DNA of 64,000 nucleotides from assembly GCA_902385655.1 (NCBI GenBank), contig CABMGO010000006.1:78499-142498 (forward strand), written 5' to 3'. Each line of letters begins with the position of its first letter. Position 1 is the stretch's first letter. A program made the translations under genes and the position numbers. Source of the stretch: an uncultured archaeon. GTDB taxonomy: Archaea; Nanobdellota; Nanobdellia; Pacearchaeales; GW2011-AR1. Below, piece by piece: positions 14,734 through 58,412 of this stretch. A model generated the notes under the pieces. That model made no database searches. It was not told the DNA's origin and saw only the letters and a list, made by a program, of their open reading frames with translations.

Positions 14734-14835
14734 ACGCCCGGATCCTGCTCACATTTTGCATTTCGCAAATAAATTTCTAAAAAACAGTTTTGCTCAAAGC
14801 GAAATGTTCAAATCGAACTGTTCGATTCTGAAGGA
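14734..14835 (-). repeat. tRNA-trailer cassette (family 1) downstream of tRNA-Ser, ending in a 12-nt re-copy of the tRNA 3' end
   Basis: ACGCCCGGATCC at 14835-14846 recurs at 14734-14745. Between the copies (tRNA sense): hairpin TTCAGAATCGA/TCGATTTGAA, then the core TTCGCTTTGAGCAAA..TTTGCGAAATGCAAAATGTGAGCAG. Confidence 0.85.
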
Positions 14836-14970
14836 CGCCCGGATCCAGAATCGAACTGGAAAAACCTTGCGGTAACCGGTTTGCTTGAGTTCTCGACGAA
14901 CGAGAGCATTGAAAATCGCCGAAGCGATTTACTGTTCAAGACCGGCGCAGTACCATTGTGCCATCCGGGC
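14836..14970 (-). tRNA. tRNA-Ser(UGA) with a 53-nt intron at the canonical 37/38 position (intron 14882-14934)
   Basis: Hand fold: acceptor GCCCGGA/TCCGGGC, 3-bp D stem, anticodon stem CCGGT/ACCGG, loop CTTGAA|A, long variable arm ACC-GCAA-GGT, T arm TCCAG-TTCGATT-CTGGA. The intron 3' end TCAAG pairs with CTTGA of the anticodon loop. Confidence 0.85.
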
Positions 14971-17470: not shown

Positions 17471-17836
17471 ATGGCACAACTCGTTGCATTACTGTCTAAA
17501 GGCGAAGGAACTTGGGGACAAGTTTCAGGATTGATAAAAAGGGGAGAATGGGAAAAAATAATCGTTATTGGAGACACCTATGCAAAAAATTTTATGGTTG
17601 AGGGTGCGCAATTTGATTTTGTCGAAGCAGATTTAGAAAAACCGCTGGTTGCATTAAAGCAAGAATTAACAACAAAATTGAAACCGAAATTAGACTCCGA
17701 TTTTTCATCAGAAGTTTCTCTTTCTATCGCATCTGGAACAGGAAAAGAACACATGGCTCTTGTCTCGGCACTTTTGGCAATTCCTGTTGGAGTTAGATTC
17801 ACAGCACTAACTAAAGATGGAATAGTATTCTTGTAA
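17471..17836 (+). CDS. hypothetical protein
   Basis: 121-aa ORF. The SGTGKEHMAL segment is faintly Rossmann/CARF-like, but this is not enough to call. Confidence 0.55.
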   Translation: MAQLVALLSKGEGTWGQVSGLIKRGEWEKIIVIGDTYAKNFMVEGAQFDFVEADLEKPLVALKQELTTKLKPKLDSDFSSEVSLSIASGTGKEHMALVSALLAIPVGVRFTALTKDGIVFL

Positions 17837-18097
17837 ATGAAAGATTATTCTCCACAAGTGACTGAAGGAGATAGGAAAGGATTTAACATTGCATGTTATG
17901 GGCTTATTGGGATGGGGGCTGCAACTTTATTGGCACTAGGGGGACTAGCCTACTCAAGCAATACTTTTAGACAAAGGATTTCTCAAGAATTATGGCCTAT
18001 CTCCCCAAGTATAGAAAATAAATTGAATTCAGAAAATATAAATTCTTCGAGTAATGCTAATCTTCAGATGACACAATTACTCCTTCAAACTAATTAA
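17837..18097 (+). CDS. hypothetical small membrane protein
   Basis: 86-aa ORF with one TM helix, abutting the upstream ORF. Confidence 0.45.
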   Translation: MKDYSPQVTEGDRKGFNIACYGLIGMGAATLLALGGLAYSSNTFRQRISQELWPISPSIENKLNSENINSSSNANLQMTQLLLQTN

Positions 18098-18104
18098 AAA
18101 TAAA

Positions 18105-18392
18105 ATGACTTCCGTTAATGCATCTCACATTTTGGTAAAAACTGAAAAAGAAGCTTTAGATATTCTACATCAAATAGTCGCTAAAGAAATTACTTTTGAG
18201 GATGCAGCAAGAAAATATTCTTTTTGTCCATCAAAAAGACAGGGCGGAAGTTTAGGTAACTTCGGAAAAGGAATGATGGTTCAAGAATTCGAAGAAGCAT
18301 GCTTCAGCGATAAAAACAAAGTCGGAGACGTTGTAGGTCCAATAAAAACCCAGTTTGGTTTTCATTTAATAAAAATTAACTCTCGAAATTAA
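18105..18392 (+). CDS. parvulin-type peptidyl-prolyl isomerase
   Basis: ASHILV..CPSKRQGGSLGNFGKGMMVQEFE..FGFHLIK, the PpiC/parvulin pattern. Confidence 0.85.
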   Translation: MTSVNASHILVKTEKEALDILHQIVAKEITFEDAARKYSFCPSKRQGGSLGNFGKGMMVQEFEEACFSDKNKVGDVVGPIKTQFGFHLIKINSRN

Positions 18393-22973: not shown

Positions 22974-23702
22974 ATGGTAACAGTTCAAAAAAATGACTTT
23001 ATTGAATTAGAATTTACTGGAATTGTCAAAGACACTCAGGAAATTTTCGATACTACGAATAAGGACGAAGCAAAAAAAATTGGTATGCAGAACCCTGAAA
23101 AGGTAAAACCTGCAATGCTTTCGGTAGGTAATAGTATGACAGTAAAAGGGCTTGATGCTGACTTATCCGGAAAAGAAGTTGGAAAAGAATATTCTATCGA
23201 ACTAAAAGCAGAAGATGCATTTGGAAAGAGAAATCCTTCAATGGTCAAAATGATTCCATTAAAACTTTTCTTAGAGCAAAGAATTATGCCTGAGAAGGGA
23301 ATGCAACTTTCTCTTGATGGGATGGTTGTAAAAATTGTCTCTGTTTCAGGCGGAAGAGTTTTAGTAGATTTCAATAATCCTCTTTCGGGAAAAACAATTA
23401 TCTACAAATACAAAATCTCAAGAAAGCTTGAAGACCAAAAGGAAAAAATTAATGCACTTCAAGACTTTTTCTTCAGAAAAACTTTTGATTTCGAAGTCAA
23501 AGAAAAAGATTTAATCATGAAAGTTGATAAGAACATGCAGAAGTTTGTTGAGATGATGGCAAAGCCATTTGAAGAAATTCTCGGATTAAAAGTTAAGGTC
23601 GAAGTTTTCGCTTCGACACAAAGTTCAAAAGTCGGAGATGCAAAAGCTGAGCAAGAGATAGTCGAAAAGAAAGAAGAGAAAAAAGAAGAAGCGAAAAAAT
23701 AA
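22974..23702 (+). CDS. FKBP-type peptidyl-prolyl isomerase (long archaeal form)
   Basis: FIELEFTGIVKDTQEIFDTT start, an IF-flap-like insert, LVDFNNPLSGK, and a C-terminal helical domain. Confidence 0.75.
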   Translation: MVTVQKNDFIELEFTGIVKDTQEIFDTTNKDEAKKIGMQNPEKVKPAMLSVGNSMTVKGLDADLSGKEVGKEYSIELKAEDAFGKRNPSMVKMIPLKLFLEQRIMPEKGMQLSLDGMVVKIVSVSGGRVLVDFNNPLSGKTIIYKYKISRKLEDQKEKINALQDFFFRKTFDFEVKEKDLIMKVDKNMQKFVEMMAKPFEEILGLKVKVEVFASTQSSKVGDAKAEQEIVEKKEEKKEEAKK

Positions 23703-26674: not shown

Positions 26675-26745
26675 GGGGGTATGGGGTAGTGGTAGCCTAC
26701 GAGGTTTGGGACTTCGTGATCTCGGTTCGATCCCGAGTACCCCCA
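26675..26745 (+). tRNA. tRNA-Pro(UGG)
   Basis: Hand fold: acceptor GGGGGTA/TACCCCC, anticodon stem CGAGG/CTTCG, loop TTTGGGA, T arm CTCGG-TTCGATC-CCGAG, discriminator A. No encoded CCA. Confidence 0.9.
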
Positions 26746-26864
26746 TTTAGCCAAAAGAAGTCGGCGATCGAACACTCGATCCTGAGCAAAACGCTTCGAG
26801 CAGACAAACTGAAAAGTTTATAACTGCGAGATGTATTTTGTGAACAGAGTACCCCCATTTAGCC
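26746..26864 (+). repeat. tRNA-trailer cassette (family 1) downstream of tRNA-Pro, ending in an 18-nt re-copy of the tRNA 3' end
   Basis: GAGTACCCCCATTTAGCC at 26735-26752 recurs at 26847-26864. Internal hairpin GATCGA-ACAC-TCGATC, then the core ACGCTTCGAGCAG..CTGCGAGATGTATTTTGTGAACAG. Confidence 0.9.
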
Positions 26865-33025: not shown

Positions 33026-33080
33026 ACACTTTTCCTGCATAACAAACAAGCTATTCCAAAGTGTCCTTCCCTGCGGAAGG
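33026..33080 (-). repeat. family 2 structured repeat, short form
   Basis: The minus strand reads CCTTCCGCAGGGAAGG-ACACTTTGGAATAG..TTATGCAGGAAAAGTGT. This matches the right half of the long form and the short copy at 63444-63498. Confidence 0.8.
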
Positions 33081-33133
33081 AAAAAAGAAAAAAGGGCAAA
33101 GTTCTATTTGTTATTTAAGCGGTGATAGAAAAT

Positions 33134-33200
33134 TTTTCGCTTTGAGCAAATTTACTTTTATTTTAATATTTGCGAAATGCAAAAAATTTTGAAGTTGCAG
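33134..33200 (+). repeat. family 1 core, solo copy (no tRNA attached)
   Basis: TTTTCGCTTTGAGCAAAT..ATTTGCGAAATGCAAAAAATTTTGAAGTTGCAG. Confidence 0.8.
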
Positions 33201-33269
33201 GTCTGCAACTGCGTTTTCTTAGTTACGTGGCTTTTTGCCCAGCTAGTAACTAAAAATCAAAGAAAAAGA

Positions 33270-33304
33270 TAAAAATAAAAAAAAGAAAAAAGGGCAAAAA
33301 GCCC
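33270..33304 (-). terminator. hairpin plus T-run downstream of the S-layer gene
   Basis: The minus strand reads GGGC-TTTTT-GCCC followed by TTTTTTCTTTTTTTT, 12 nt after the stop codon. Confidence 0.65.
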
Positions 33305-45786: not shown

Positions 45787-45838
45787 TGAAGCTAGAATGA
45801 GTACTTTATCATCGCATAGAGTATGATGTAAGGCCATT
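45787..45838 (+). other. 16S processing-stem 5' strand
   Basis: TGAAGCTAG..TAAGGCCATT is complementary to AATGGCCTTACTAGCTTCA at 47512-47530. A ~33-nt extra hairpin is bulged from the 5' strand. Confidence 0.7.
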
Positions 45839-46021
45839 TTTAGTTACGTCAATTCTTTTATATTAATACAAACTTTTACGAGTGAAAAAAGTTTTTGTAA
45901 ACTGAAAATGTTTTAAGAGCAATTTTCAGATAGGATAGATCTTGTTTATTCGATATGATTATGATTAATTTTCCTTTCTTATATCGAAGCTGATAATTTG
46001 TAATATTACAATATTAGTTTA

Positions 46022-47463
<1,442 letters not shown>

Positions 47464-47511
47464 AAATTTAAAAAAATTTTAAATTAAATCTTGAAGAATT
47501 ATGTTTTTAGG

Positions 47512-47530
47512 AATGGCCTTACTAGCTTCA
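47512..47530 (+). other. 16S processing-stem 3' strand
   Basis: Complement of 45787-45795 plus 45829-45838. Confidence 0.7.
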
Positions 47531-47610
47531 TTGTATATTTATTTCGTCGATGAAGAAATATCATCGATTAAAAATTCCTGTGCAAGAGGAAGACTCGGCA
47601 CAGAAAAACT

Positions 47611-47681
47611 GGGCCTGTAGTCTAGTAGTAAAATACCTCCCTTGCACGGAGGGGTCTCGGGTGCGATTCCCGACAGGTCCA
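47611..47681 (+). tRNA. tRNA-Ala(UGC) in the 16S-23S spacer
   Basis: Acceptor GGGCCTG/CAGGTCC with G3:U70, anticodon stem CCTCC/GGAGG, loop CTTGCAC, and T arm CTCGG-GTGCGATT-CCCGA region. The D arm is AT-rich and weak. Confidence 0.85.
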
Positions 47682-47797
47682 TTTTGCTACGTCGGGAGAG
47701 CACATGCGATTCCGAAAAATTCGCTTCGAGCAAAAACAAAAGTAAAACAAAATTTACTTTTTTGCGAGATGCAAATTTTGAGCAGACAGGTCCATTT
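47682..47797 (+). repeat. tRNA-trailer cassette (family 1) downstream of tRNA-Ala, ending in a 13-nt re-copy of the tRNA 3' end
   Basis: GACAGGTCCATTT at 47672-47684 recurs at 47785-47797. It has the T-arm-like hairpin TCGGGA..TTCCGA containing TGCGATTCC, then the core TTCGCTTCGAGCAAAAA..TTTTTTGCGAGATGCAAATTTTGAGCAG. Confidence 0.9.
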
Positions 47798-47839
47798 CCG
47801 ACGAGAAATGGAAAATCACAAATCACACTCACTAAAAAA

Positions 47840-47918
47840 ATTTCGCTTCGAGCGGAACAAGATAACTAAAAATTATCTTCCGCGAAATGCAAAATTTTTT
47901 CTAAAATGAGAGAGCAAG
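47840..47918 (+). repeat. family 1 core, solo copy in the ITS
   Basis: ATTTCGCTTCGAGCGGAAC..TCTTCCGCGAAATGCAAAATTTTTTC, followed by the hairpin AGAGCA-AGAAA-TGCTCT. Confidence 0.8.
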
Positions 47919-48032
47919 AAATGCTCTTTAAAAAATAACGTCAAACCATGAAGTTCGTGACGATGCGTTGCGGATGGAGTTCGAGAACACAGTAAAGTTA
48001 GATTCACACGAATCTAATATCATGTTCAATGA

Positions 48033-48054
48033 AGACAGTACAATATAGATTAGT
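48033..48054 (+). other. 23S processing-stem 5' strand
   Basis: AGACAGTACAATATAGATTAGT is the exact reverse complement of 51002-51023. Confidence 0.85.
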
Positions 48055-48073
48055 CTGATAATAACAATAAAAA

Positions 48074-48093
48074 TTTTGCGAATGCAAAATTTG
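48074..48093 (+). repeat. family 1 partial copy (right block only)
   Basis: TTTTGCGAATGCAAAATTTG. Confidence 0.5.
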
Positions 48094-48184
48094 TTTATAA
48101 GAAATTATCGTTTCCCACACATATAGTGTGTGGAGGAAGAAGAAAGAAGATTAAGATCTGTTTTATTTTTATAATAAAACAACT

Positions 48185-50985
<2,801 letters not shown>

Positions 50986-51001
50986 TTAAACTTCAATCTT
51001 C

Positions 51002-51023
51002 ACTAATCTATATTGTACTGTCT
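51002..51023 (+). other. 23S processing-stem 3' strand
   Basis: ACTAATCTATATTGTACTGTCT is the complement of 48033-48054. Confidence 0.85.
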
Positions 51024-51266
51024 TTATCTTGAATTATGAAAGATATTGTTGTATTGTGTTTACAACTTTATCTTGAATTTTTAAAAAATATTTTAATTTT
51101 TTTGAGATTTTATCTTGAAGCATAAAGTATTATGTTTCAATTTATTGAAACTTTTATTTGATCTAAAAATTCTTTAAATCTTAATACATACCTTTTTAAA
51201 GCGATTTATTTTGATTTATTTGTCATAGAAATTAGATTTCTAGTTTTTTATGCAAGGAGAAATAAA

Positions 51267-52448: not shown

Positions 52449-52547
52449 ATAAAAATAGAGAAGAAACACGACTTAAAAATGTTTTGTTTTTGGAATTTTT
52501 TCAGCAAAACCAAGAGTTTAAAAATGATTTTTATATAAGATTTTTAT

Positions 52548-52619
52548 GGGTTCGTAGCTCATTGGGAGAGCGTCCGACTGAAGCTCGGTAGGTAGGGAGT
52601 TCGATTCTCCCCGAGCCCA
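52548..52619 (+). tRNA. tRNA-Phe(GAA)
   Basis: Acceptor GGGTTCG/CGAGCCC, D arm GCTC-ATTGGGA-GAGC, anticodon loop CTGAAGC, and T arm GGGAG-TTCGATT-CTCCC. The TATA box GTTTAAAAATG lies about 25 nt upstream. Confidence 0.9.
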
Positions 52620-52734
52620 TTTTCTTGAATCGAACGACCGTAGTAGGGAGCGAAAATTTTACACCGAGAAATTCTTATTTCATTTATTTAATTTAGAGAT
52701 GTGAAATTTGAGTAGATTCTCCCCGAGCCCATTT
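52620..52734 (+). repeat. tRNA-trailer cassette (family 1, divergent) downstream of tRNA-Phe, ending in a 20-nt re-copy of the tRNA 3' end
   Basis: GATTCTCCCCGAGCCCATTT at 52603-52622 recurs at 52715-52734. GAATCGAAC (52627-52635) is antisense to the T loop GTTCGATTC. Core: CACCGAGAAATT..AATTTAGAGATGTGAAATTTGAGTAG. Confidence 0.85.
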
Positions 52735-57709: not shown

Positions 57710-57749
57710 ATTTTATCGAGGAAAAACAACTTTATAAACTCTTTTCATC

Positions 57750-58412
57750 TTGAAAGTACATGACGAGCAATTCGCTTTGAAGAACAAAATGGAAGAAAAA
57801 AATAAATCTGAAATGCAAATTGCGAGAGAATTTGTATATTACTCTCAAAATGCAGTAACCTCTGGAAATATGATCAAAGACGATCTTATGAAAGCTGGAA
57901 GAATGGACATTGCTATAAATGTTTTAATTTCTGCATTTTTTCTTTCGCATGATGTAAGGAAGGATGTAAAATTGCACTTAATTTTTGAAGGACCTCCAAC
58001 CCCTCCTGTTCACATTTTGATTGAGTATGATGAAGACCTTGCGATTTCGAAAAAAGACGTTGCAGGGTTAATAAAAAGAATTTTGTATAAATGTCCTTCT
58101 GAAAAAGGCAAAACTGTTAAAGCTTTTCCCGGATGTTTTGTAGAAAAAAAATCTTTCGAAGCATTAGTGGATGAATTAGACAAGTCTGGAAAAAATGTTT
58201 TTCTTCTAGATAAGAAAGGAACAGACATCCGAGATCTAAAATTGAATGGAAATGAAGTTTTTGTGCTAGGTGACCAAGATGGTTTTCCCGACAGCAAGAG
58301 GCATCTTTTAAAAAGAATAGACAAAATTACCGTTTCACCTAAAATGCTTTTTGCTTCCCAAGTTTTAACAATAGTACATAATGAAATCGATAGAAAAGAG
58401 ATTTCGCAATAA
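57750..58412 (+). CDS. trmY: tRNA (pseudouridine54-N1)-methyltransferase TrmY (SPOUT, DUF358)
   Basis: REFVYYSQNAVTSG..GRMDIAINVLISAFFLSHDVRKD resembles archaeal TrmY. The true start is probably an internal Met. Confidence 0.65.
   Translation: MKVHDEQFALKNKMEEKNKSEMQIAREFVYYSQNAVTSGNMIKDDLMKAGRMDIAINVLISAFFLSHDVRKDVKLHLIFEGPPTPPVHILIEYDEDLAISKKDVAGLIKRILYKCPSEKGKTVKAFPGCFVEKKSFEALVDELDKSGKNVFLLDKKGTDIRDLKLNGNEVFVLGDQDGFPDSKRHLLKRIDKITVSPKMLFASQVLTIVHNEIDRKEISQ

Follow-up and report, generated by a model that had tools for sequence, protein, structure and literature searches.

What is the DNA that separates the alanine transfer RNA (tRNA) gene of an archaeal ribosomal RNA (rRNA) operon from a second copy of its own 3' end? 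The question is raised by a stretch of 64,000 nucleotides (nt) from an uncultured archaeon, hereafter the window, in which the tRNA-Ala(TGC) gene of the 16S-23S spacer is followed by about 100 nt of non-coding DNA and then by an exact repeat of the last part of the gene. An earlier note on this locus had described the arrangement as a bracketed cassette that echoes its host tRNA and that has to be removed or tolerated during rRNA maturation. On the basis of a comparison of the window with ~0.6 Mb of metagenome loci (designated by L numbers), positions 47685-47797 are on balance best read as a single copy of a non-autonomous hairpin element of small size, seated within an incomplete second copy of the tRNA-Ala 3' part. 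The hairpin, named H1 below, is most likely selfish mobile DNA rather than part of rRNA processing.

The window is AT-rich archaeal DNA (35% G+C) and its rRNA operon comprises a 16S gene at 46022-47463 and a 23S gene at 48176-50990 (Rfam), with tRNA-Ala located in the spacer between them (ARAGORN, Rfam). The 16S processing stem is formed by ~45790-45840 and 47513-47530 and the 23S processing stem by ~48030-48055 and 51000-51024. The region 47600-47930, the Ala cassette included, lies between the two stems and should therefore belong to the primary rRNA transcript, with which the cassette is presumably transcribed, as the earlier note had supposed.

The tRNA-Ala gene (coordinates of all features are given in Table 1) has a G3:U70 pair and an unusual T loop, TGCGATT, with a G at position 55, a position that is near-universally U (U55) in tRNAs; its T arm is identical in five loci (the window, L155, L161, L234, and L236). 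A comparable loop, TGCAATT, was seen in tRNA-Cys of L128 and L206. The direct repeat GACAGGTCCATTT (13 nt) occurs only at the end of the gene and again beyond the hairpin, two matches being found in 0 of 100 shuffled sequences, and TGCGATTCC occurs only in the tRNA (47662-70) and as an echo upstream of the second repeat copy (two or more matches in 2 of 100 shuffles). Both had been pointed out in the earlier note and hold, as does its report of the same kind of cassette at tRNA-Ser and tRNA-Pro, to which tRNA-Phe can be added. The tRNA-like pieces match the tRNA to which they belong, down to the Ala-specific TGCGATT, and do likewise in the independent assemblies L155 and L234, where the repeat is also present; the T-arm-like segment stays tRNA-derived once more taxa are added. 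Neither of the refutations foreseen in the earlier note is thus borne out.

The left part of the cassette reads differently from what had been proposed. The stretch GTCGGGAGAGCACA, taken before as a sense echo of the 5' strand of the T stem, is better explained as an inverted copy, now decayed, of TGCGATTCCCGAC (reverse complement GTCGGGAATCGCA); clean inverted copies stand at the equivalent place in L155 (GGGAATCGC) and L234 (GGAATCGC). That the left arm varies together with the host tRNA was correctly observed, and local duplication of the tRNA, direct and inverted, around an inserted hairpin explains it with no designed echo. What is really repeated is the conserved hairpin at the center; it had been overlooked, together with a second hairpin further down the spacer.

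The limits of the insert are indicated by L161, which carries an identical tRNA-Ala and no cassette. In this locus CCA followed by tccgaagaatgg lies directly 3' of the single tRNA-Ala end (the empty site reads CCAT-CCGAAGA-ATGG immediately after the tRNA), and tccgaagaatgg is homologous to the window flank after copy 2 of the repeat (tttccgacgagaaatgg). The CCGACG hexamer and the terminal CCATTTC...GAAATGG hairpin, although present as first described, are therefore native trailer of tRNA-Ala and not cassette. The hexamers CGTCGG (47690-95) and CCGACG (47798-803) do occur in the window and are absent as a conserved feature from L155 and L234, so that the idea of a fixed, bracketed module has to be given up in favor of native flank or coincidence. 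The spacers of relatives, whose alignment had been suggested, are polymorphic: the cassette is present in L155 and L234 (in the latter, whose RNase J is 74% identical, it is orthologous and its apical stem similar), missing from L161 and reduced to a decayed remnant in L236, which also lacks the second spacer hairpin. Judging from these spacers, the Ala cassette is dispensable.

H1 measures ~72 nt in the Ala cassette and the element ~60-80 nt overall. At its base is a Y-R pair, above which stand a symmetric loop of tandem G.A and a helix of 6 bp (RYAATT/AATTRY) topped by a C.A mismatch. The pairs G-C and C-G come next, then a U.U mismatch, the pairs U-A and Y-R and another tandem G.A; the apical helix invariably starts with GC/GC and then varies in sequence and length. 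In the Ala copy the base is c-GA...GA-g, helix P1 is AAAATT/AATTTT, GC/GC and UC/GA pairs come next and the apical helix is GCAAAAA.../...TTTTTGC. Among 62 distinct copies 93% of cells pair and 12 of 17 pairs change on both sides; double-sided changes amount to 129 cells versus 35 expected, a value reached by none of 500 shuffles, and slid registers fall well short. All these copies were retrieved with a pattern that fixes positions of the lower stem, so that its conservation is partly by construction; the copies found only with R1, the covariance model of H1 (tRNA-Pro, 57763, 23599), still keep TTCGCTTYGA...GARATGCAAA. In the variable part of the stem, P1 included, G.T wobbles are far commoner than A.C, and the strand shown is therefore the folding strand, either as RNA or as single-stranded DNA. 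The predicted minimum-energy fold pairs the acceptor 5' strand of the tRNA with copy 2.

Several known identities of the hairpin were considered and rejected. In Rfam 15 only tRNA and rRNA reach the gathering threshold in the window, and a search at E<=10 over 47400-48250 returned nothing meaningful, leaving H1 without a matching family. Box C/D RNAs are recognized by boxes C (RUGAUGA) and D (CUGA) and a kink-turn with a 3-nt bulge, and H/ACA RNAs by a pseudouridylation pocket and an ACA box; the G.A pairs of H1 have no 3-nt bulge and its consensus holds neither boxes nor pocket. A promoter in the AT-rich apical loop, ~25 nt upstream of copy 2, is contradicted by the many loops that lack a TATA-like sequence and by the covariation of this region as a helix.

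R1 detects eight hairpins in the 64 kb: four linked to tRNA genes, the second spacer copy, one intergenic, one in a 5' leader and one within an open reading frame (ORF). All four tRNA genes of the window (Ala, Pro, Ser, and Phe) carry the identical cassette arrangement, namely the intact tRNA, a few to tens of bases, an inverted copy of the T loop (e.g., GATCGAAC, GAATCGAAC), a short sense echo, the hairpin and a copy of the tRNA 3' end, which is exact and starts right after the GARYA of the hairpin at Pro (18 nt), Phe (20 nt), and Ser (12 nt). The hairpin of tRNA-Phe scores weakly with R1 and belongs to a second family (H2). At tRNA-Ser a T run is absent after copy 1 and strong after copy 2, for which reason this cassette is probably co-transcribed with its tRNA. 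The tRNA-Ser(TGA) gene itself has an intron of ~52 nt at 37/38 and is missed by ARAGORN with default settings and by the Rfam gathering threshold; with the intron option, ARAGORN mislabels it as tRNA-Ala.

Table 1. Hairpins, tRNA genes and tRNA-derived segments in the window (positions counted from its first nucleotide).
Feature	Position	Strand	Composition or setting	Evidence
tRNA-Ala(TGC)	47611-47681	+	T arm TCGGG 47657-61, T loop TGCGATT 47662-68, CCCGA 47669-73; acceptor 3' strand 47674-80; discriminator A 47681	ARAGORN; Rfam tRNA 55.8 bits; sequence
Direct repeat copy 1, GACAGGTCCATTT	47672-47684	+	T-stem end, acceptor 3' strand, discriminator and TTT	Sequence match
Decayed inverted copy (a'), GTCGGGAGAGCACA	47691-47704	+	Copy of tRNA positions ~54-66	Sequence; clean counterparts in L155, L234
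Sense echo (La), TGCGATTCC	47705-47713	+	T loop and T-stem 3' strand; left arm of interrupted pseudo-copy	Sequence
H1 hairpin of Ala cassette	47712-47784	+		R1 69.8 bits, E=4e-17; fold; covariation
Direct repeat copy 2 (Ra), GACAGGTCCATTT	47785-47797	+	Right arm of pseudo-copy, then ancestral tRNA-Ala trailer	Sequence; L161 flank homology
Native trailer hairpin CCATTTC-CGACGA-GAAATGG	47792-47811	+	Outside the inserted element	Sequence; L161 comparison
Second spacer H1	47834-47902	+	No tRNA-fragment flanks	R1 57.7 bits; kept in L155, L161, L166, absent from L236
tRNA-Pro cassette	26675-26864	+	tRNA 26675-26745; inverted copy GATCGAAC 26766-73; echo TCGATCC 26776-82; H1 26782-26846	ARAGORN, R1, sequence
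tRNA-Pro 18-nt repeat, GAGTACCCCCATTTAGCC	26735-26752 and 26847-26864	+		Sequence
tRNA-Ser(TGA) cassette	14734-14970	-	intron-containing tRNA 14836-14970; antisense T loop GAATCGAAC 14820-28; echo GTTCGATT 14811-18; H1 14746-14811	R1, sequence
tRNA-Ser 12-nt repeat, GGATCCGGGCGT	14835-14846 and 14734-14745	-		Sequence
tRNA-Phe cassette	52547-52734	+	tRNA 52547-52620; antisense T loop GAATCGAAC 52627-35; echo GGGAG; H2 hairpin 52650-52714	ARAGORN, R1 26 bits, sequence
tRNA-Phe 20-nt repeat	52603-52622 and 52715-52734	+		Sequence
Intergenic H1	33128-33192	+	No tRNA nearby	R1 60.9 bits
H1 in gene leader	57763-57828	+	5' leader and start of aTrm56-like (PF04013) gene	R1 54.3 bits
H1-like hairpin in ORF	23599-23653	+	3' part of FKBP-type isomerase ORF (22974-23702)	R1 39.8 bits

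Outside the window, H1 was searched with a specific 24-position pattern of its lower stem over metagenome and viral contigs. The pattern occurs in 112 metagenome contigs from lakes, groundwater and sediments, 111 of them AT-rich (28-42% G+C), the match in L177 being due to chance; the viral contigs yielded 0 matches, and a loose pattern (GCTTYGAGCN{15,45}GCGARATGYA) run over genome contigs produced chance matches in GC-rich bacteria only. RNase J homologues are named Nanoarchaeota or Nanoarchaeia archaeon by their sources. One protein of the window, looked up by exact match, had no record. H1 represents a family of small hairpin elements that is widespread in tiny DPANN archaea and apparently undescribed; the literature searched contained no description of it, which is absence of evidence and not proof of novelty.

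The association with tRNA genes is pronounced. Of 116 distinct hairpin contexts, 90 lie at most 260 nt from a tRNA and represent 17 isotypes, and for the remaining 26 no tRNA was detected within that distance. The tRNA-linked hairpins are mostly downstream, on the same strand (67) or inverted (14), and nine are upstream, flanked by copies of the 5' part of the tRNA. The distance from the end of the pattern to the start of the direct repeat is 8-10 nt in 42 of 48 cases. The start of the repeat, equivalent to the insertion point, falls at -17/-18 from the tRNA end, in the T loop, in 19 of 48 cases and at -9 to -14, around the T-stem/acceptor junction, in another 20, including all Ser, Pro and Ala cassettes. 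Left and right arms are adjacent in the tRNA save for 1-4 missing bases, which are found in the inverted copy; an antisense T-loop copy of this kind is present in most metagenome cassettes. The flanking duplication is variable (10-33 nt), an exact repeat of at least 13 nt being present in 45 of 61 cases and one of 8 nt or less in 8 of 61. No common target oligonucleotide was seen at the insertion junctions, nor were a regular short target-site duplication or classical terminal inverted repeats found. Neither repeat nor hairpin accompanies 19 of the 92 tRNAs in the loci compared. It was also considered whether a native antisense T-loop hairpin stands 3' of every tRNA, and most cassette-free tRNAs have none.

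The position is not exclusive to H1. Unrelated hairpin families (H2-H4) share its YGA/GAR base and the tRNA-fragment flanks and occupy the same slot at other tRNAs; H3 is distinguished by three consecutive U.G pairs. At least three such families besides H1 (e.g., cGAgtgGTTTAGGTCTYGAC...CAAGACCTGGRC..GAgya) were noticed in L131, L204, L124, L175, L226, L152, L151, and L146. In addition, copy 2 tracks differences in the acceptor stem between orthologous tRNAs, as seen for tRNA-Lys in L141 and L168 and for tRNA-His in L183 and L190.

The unit is rearranged in several of the loci. The whole unit forms tandem arrays, with three copies each in L160 and L221 and others in L124, L174, L197, and L208. 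In L126 (8793-9860) a full-length tRNA-Thr has been duplicated with its promoter and one copy is cut by H1 in the T loop, 770 nt from the intact copy; the interrupted gene is followed by a second unit with an H2-type hairpin, and a GNAT-like ORF lies between the two tRNA-Thr copies. L128 contains two hairpins, the one inverted with respect to the other, in a pseudo-tRNA-Cys that is nearly complete, and L188 a pseudo-copy without hairpin. The tRNA-Phe gene of the window has the opposite orientation to that of the otherwise syntenic L236 (19712-19783) and L161 (6976-7049), always next to the same GNAT gene, and its company differs: an H2 hairpin with 3' fragments in the window, H1 with 5' fragments in L236 and neither in L161. 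The pseudo-copies have mismatches and lack 1-4 nt (e.g., T54-C56) and are therefore unable to yield a functional tRNA; since their arms cannot reconstitute a T loop, a role as spare exon is argued against. Exact element ends were also sought by comparing filled and empty sites of the orphan spacer hairpin, where a possible AAAT duplication, read by eye, is ambiguous in the A-rich flank.

The hairpins resemble each other by sample rather than by tRNA. Similarity of the apical loops averages 0.157 (11.7% of values above 0.5) between different tRNAs of the same sample, grouping being by sample, which is not equivalent to genome, against 0.007 (2.7%) between samples at the same tRNA and a background of -0.016 (0.3%). 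Alike loops occur at Asn and His and at Ser and Phe within one assembly, and at Leu and Ser in another; in L155 there is a close likeness between the hairpin of the Ala cassette and the orphan one that lies 400 nt further downstream in the spacer of this locus. From this likeness within samples we infer copying between loci, by transposition or gene conversion, and not ancient vertical inheritance of each cassette.

In the reading of H1 as an insertion element, the mobile unit would be the hairpin alone, bounded by YGA...GARYA, and the tRNA-like flanks would be local target DNA, that is, a left arm (TGCGATTCC), a right arm (GACAGGTCCATTT) continuous with the former trailer and, immediately upstream of the left arm, its inverted copy. 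The hairpin would insert, presumably at the DNA level and with the help of an enzyme, at exposed loops or junctions of tRNA genes, with the T loop (53/57) and the T-stem/acceptor junction as hot spots. As each of these tRNA genes is essential and present once, an event would persist only if it left or made an intact copy alongside, and the target duplication may be either part of the insertion/repair process or a precondition imposed by selection. The outcome would be the order intact tRNA, short spacer, inverted copy, echo, hairpin and exact 3'-end repeat, and recombination between the direct repeats would then either multiply the unit into tandem arrays or remove it precisely. The established enzymes of tRNA release in archaea, RNase P and RNase Z, would free tRNA-Ala at copy 1 and the cassette RNA would be discarded. 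The spacer cassette would be a passenger, and it does not count as evidence for an unusual rRNA maturation pathway. Reverse-transcribed mature tRNA, suggested by a start near position 58, was rejected as the source of copy 2, which continues into the genomic trailer and not into CCA. A bolder proposal, speculative and rather unlikely as it stands, is that H1 represents a new archaeal mobile class that recognizes folded tRNA genes or transcripts and makes its own safe landing site by target duplication, the cassette RNA (antisense and sense tRNA pieces around a putative protein-binding hairpin) serving as a guide that can be programmed, either for homing by renewed insertion or for some function of the host on that tRNA.

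Among known mobile elements, MITEs (miniature transposable elements with inverted repeats), repetitive extragenic palindromes (REP) and bacterial interspersed mosaic elements (BIME) are non-autonomous, depend on mobilization in trans and are similarly small, non-coding, hairpin-forming, multi-copy and polymorphic in presence, and comprise several sequence families with shared ends and copies alike within a genome. H1 differs from a MITE in that its termini are direct YGARYA motifs forming sheared G.A pairs and not perfect inverted repeats (the arms do pair), in its variable target duplication of 10-33 nt with 1-4 nt of target missing in place of a fixed short one, in its extreme preference for tRNA genes and in the lack of a partner transposase among the 40 window ORFs scanned. 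The ends of IS200/IS605 elements (palindrome-associated transposable elements, PATEs) and integron attC sites share with H1 an imperfect hairpin with conserved mismatches, a variable terminal part, G.T-tolerant strand-specific pairing and element boundaries at a fixed distance from the hairpin foot. However, H1 has no TTAC/TCAA-type sites, and those systems neither duplicate tens of target bases nor add inverted copies; attC cores (RYYYAAC / GTTRRRY) are absent from the H1 consensus and no adjacent gene cassettes were seen. PATEs and REP/RAYT repeats are characterized by subterminal hairpins that a Y1 HUH transposase recognizes and by insertion 3' of a fixed tetra- or pentanucleotide. Neither a Y1 HUH transposase nor IntI was seen among the window ORFs, and they were not searched genome-wide. 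The mobile non-canonical tRNA introns and disrupted tRNA genes of Thermoproteales (PMC3293823, PMC4033280) are also related short inserts at many positions of many tRNA genes in one lineage, with tRNA fragments nearby; they are located, however, in the functional gene and removed at a bulge-helix-bulge, whereas with H1 the functional gene is uninterrupted, the hairpin lies in a dead copy and no bulge-helix-bulge is seen on inspection.

Several observations weigh against mobility. The 40 ORFs scanned in the window have housekeeping functions (ribosomal proteins, CysRS, FtsZ, NusG, an S-layer protein, a proteasome subunit), and neither a transposase nor an integrase nor a recombinase of another kind is among them (a genome-wide search was not made), so that they offer no engine for movement; short regular target duplications and classical terminal inverted repeats are likewise lacking, and we know of no transposition chemistry that yields an inverted copy beside the echo. 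With four out of four window tRNAs occupied, a very small genome would bear a heavy load of an element that is purely selfish; deletion alone can produce presence and absence, and the likeness within samples, a sample not being a genome, could reflect gene conversion instead of transposition. The strong conservation of the lower stem between genomes whose RNase J proteins are only 66-80% identical, the placement of ~80% of tRNA-linked hairpins on the strand of the tRNA and the strand-specific wobble asymmetry also fit a functional RNA. According to this alternative, to which we attach a small but appreciable probability, H1 would act as an RNA module, both in the 3' trailers of tRNAs and in the rRNA spacer: a host protein would bind the hairpin, and the a' and Ra segments would pair with the tRNA they derive from, its precursor or its gene. 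The module might control how that tRNA is folded, processed at its 3' end, modified or turned over, or might work as a tRNA-specific guide or decoy. It would account for a covarying helix with conserved non-canonical pairs, for an excess of G.U over A.C that indicates the sense strand (with the consecutive U.G pairs of H3), for the 67 of 90 hairpins downstream on the tRNA strand, for the probable co-transcription at tRNA-Ser, for copy 2 following the acceptor stems of orthologous Lys and His tRNAs, for a lower stem kept in distant relatives and for the predicted pairing of the acceptor 5' strand with copy 2. It is harder to reconcile with a hairpin that is absent from L161, decayed in L236 and lacking at 19 of 92 tRNAs, that is found inverted (14) or upstream (9) and elsewhere inside an ORF or an mRNA leader, that matches no Rfam family, that is more alike within a sample than at orthologous tRNAs and that is repeated in tandem arrays of identical units; moreover, its arms decay and unrelated hairpin sequences occupy the same slot.

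Partial tRNA copies beside intact tRNA genes are otherwise known as the attL/attR sites of integrating viruses, plasmids and islands, for which the T loop is a preferred place of crossover (PMC9897764; PMC3293823). The cassettes could accordingly be scars of larger elements (viruses or plasmids) that recombined with the T loop or 3' part of a tRNA and were later deleted down to ~100 nt including a hairpin of the att region, an origin we regard as improbable. The likeness is real: an intact tRNA and an orphan copy of its 3' segment form direct repeats around foreign DNA, the classical signature (PMC9897764, PMC3293823), the ancestral trailer follows the orphan copy, tRNA gene inversions are associated, and the repeats tend to start in the T loop, where crossovers are known to take place in the account of Williams (2002) given in PMC9897764. 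However, an integrase with its attP is specific for one tRNA, whereas one hairpin family is seen here at no fewer than 17 isotypes, also at 5' ends and far from tRNAs; the insert is short and non-coding, no integrase was found among the 40 window ORFs, the H1 pattern is absent from the viral contigs, and a search for kb-sized elements between distant tRNA repeats gave only the 770-nt unit with a GNAT gene in L126 and a few short cases. In addition, the hairpin splits the orphan copy with a loss of 1-4 nt instead of adjoining an intact att core, and the inverted copy is left unexplained. The intron account, in which a splicing endonuclease removes the hairpin or everything between the repeats and copy 2 supplies the mature 3' end as an alternative exon, is very improbable. 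The two repeats would give the same mature sequence under either reading, the minimum-energy fold uses copy 2 for the acceptor stem, and the insertion points resemble non-canonical intron positions, which are known in some archaea. A bulge-helix-bulge consists of two 3-nt bulges flanking a 4-bp helix at the exon-intron junctions; by inspection the base of H1 has instead a symmetric 2x2 G.A loop, a Y-R closing pair and a 6-bp helix. Joining of the arms would delete T54-C56 or 1-3 other essential residues, the cassette already follows a complete tRNA that has a 3' end of its own, H1 shows no relation to the canonical introns of these tRNAs and inverted hairpins occur. Both accounts, integrase scars and introns, fit the data poorly.

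If the reading of H1 as an insertion element is correct, most tRNA genes of a large uncultured group (DPANN Nanoarchaeota) bear a hairpin element together with a dead partial copy of themselves, which would affect tRNA gene prediction (false partial tRNAs, ambiguous 3' ends) and the annotation of rRNA spacers. Such genomes would be a natural system in which to study how an insertion element colonizes essential single-copy genes without death of the host, and H1 may also lie behind the inverted tRNA genes and the local rearrangements of such streamlined DNA. Should the hairpin have a dedicated partner protein, this would be a new structure-directed recombination system or a new tRNA-linked RNA-binding factor.

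Some minor features of the window and its relatives deserve mention. About 80 nt upstream of 23S, positions 48067-48097 partially match the 3' half of H1 (GCGAATGCAAAATTTG) with a score, 12 bits (E ~0.75), that is not significant. The 16S-23S spacers of relatives contain small ORFs (~50-80 amino acids) between the Ala cassette and the second hairpin (L155, ~590-800; L166; L234, ~17735-17890 and 17950-18190), one of which is preceded in relatives by the conserved segment cggcgaaaaacaaaatgttttttgtcgagag. At the 5' end of the aTrm56-like gene (region 57731-57830) a TATA-like CTTTATAAAC lies ~25 nt upstream of H1 and the ATG (57789) falls in the apical loop, and in the FKBP-type isomerase the H1-like hairpin immediately precedes a Lys/Glu-rich tail. 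Finally, an A-rich motif, AAAAAATAAAAAAAAGAAAAAAGGGCAAAAA, is located 3' of the S-layer gene, partially repeated in the window (~33060-33085 and 33265-33300) and kept in four genomes (the window, L233, L234, and L236).

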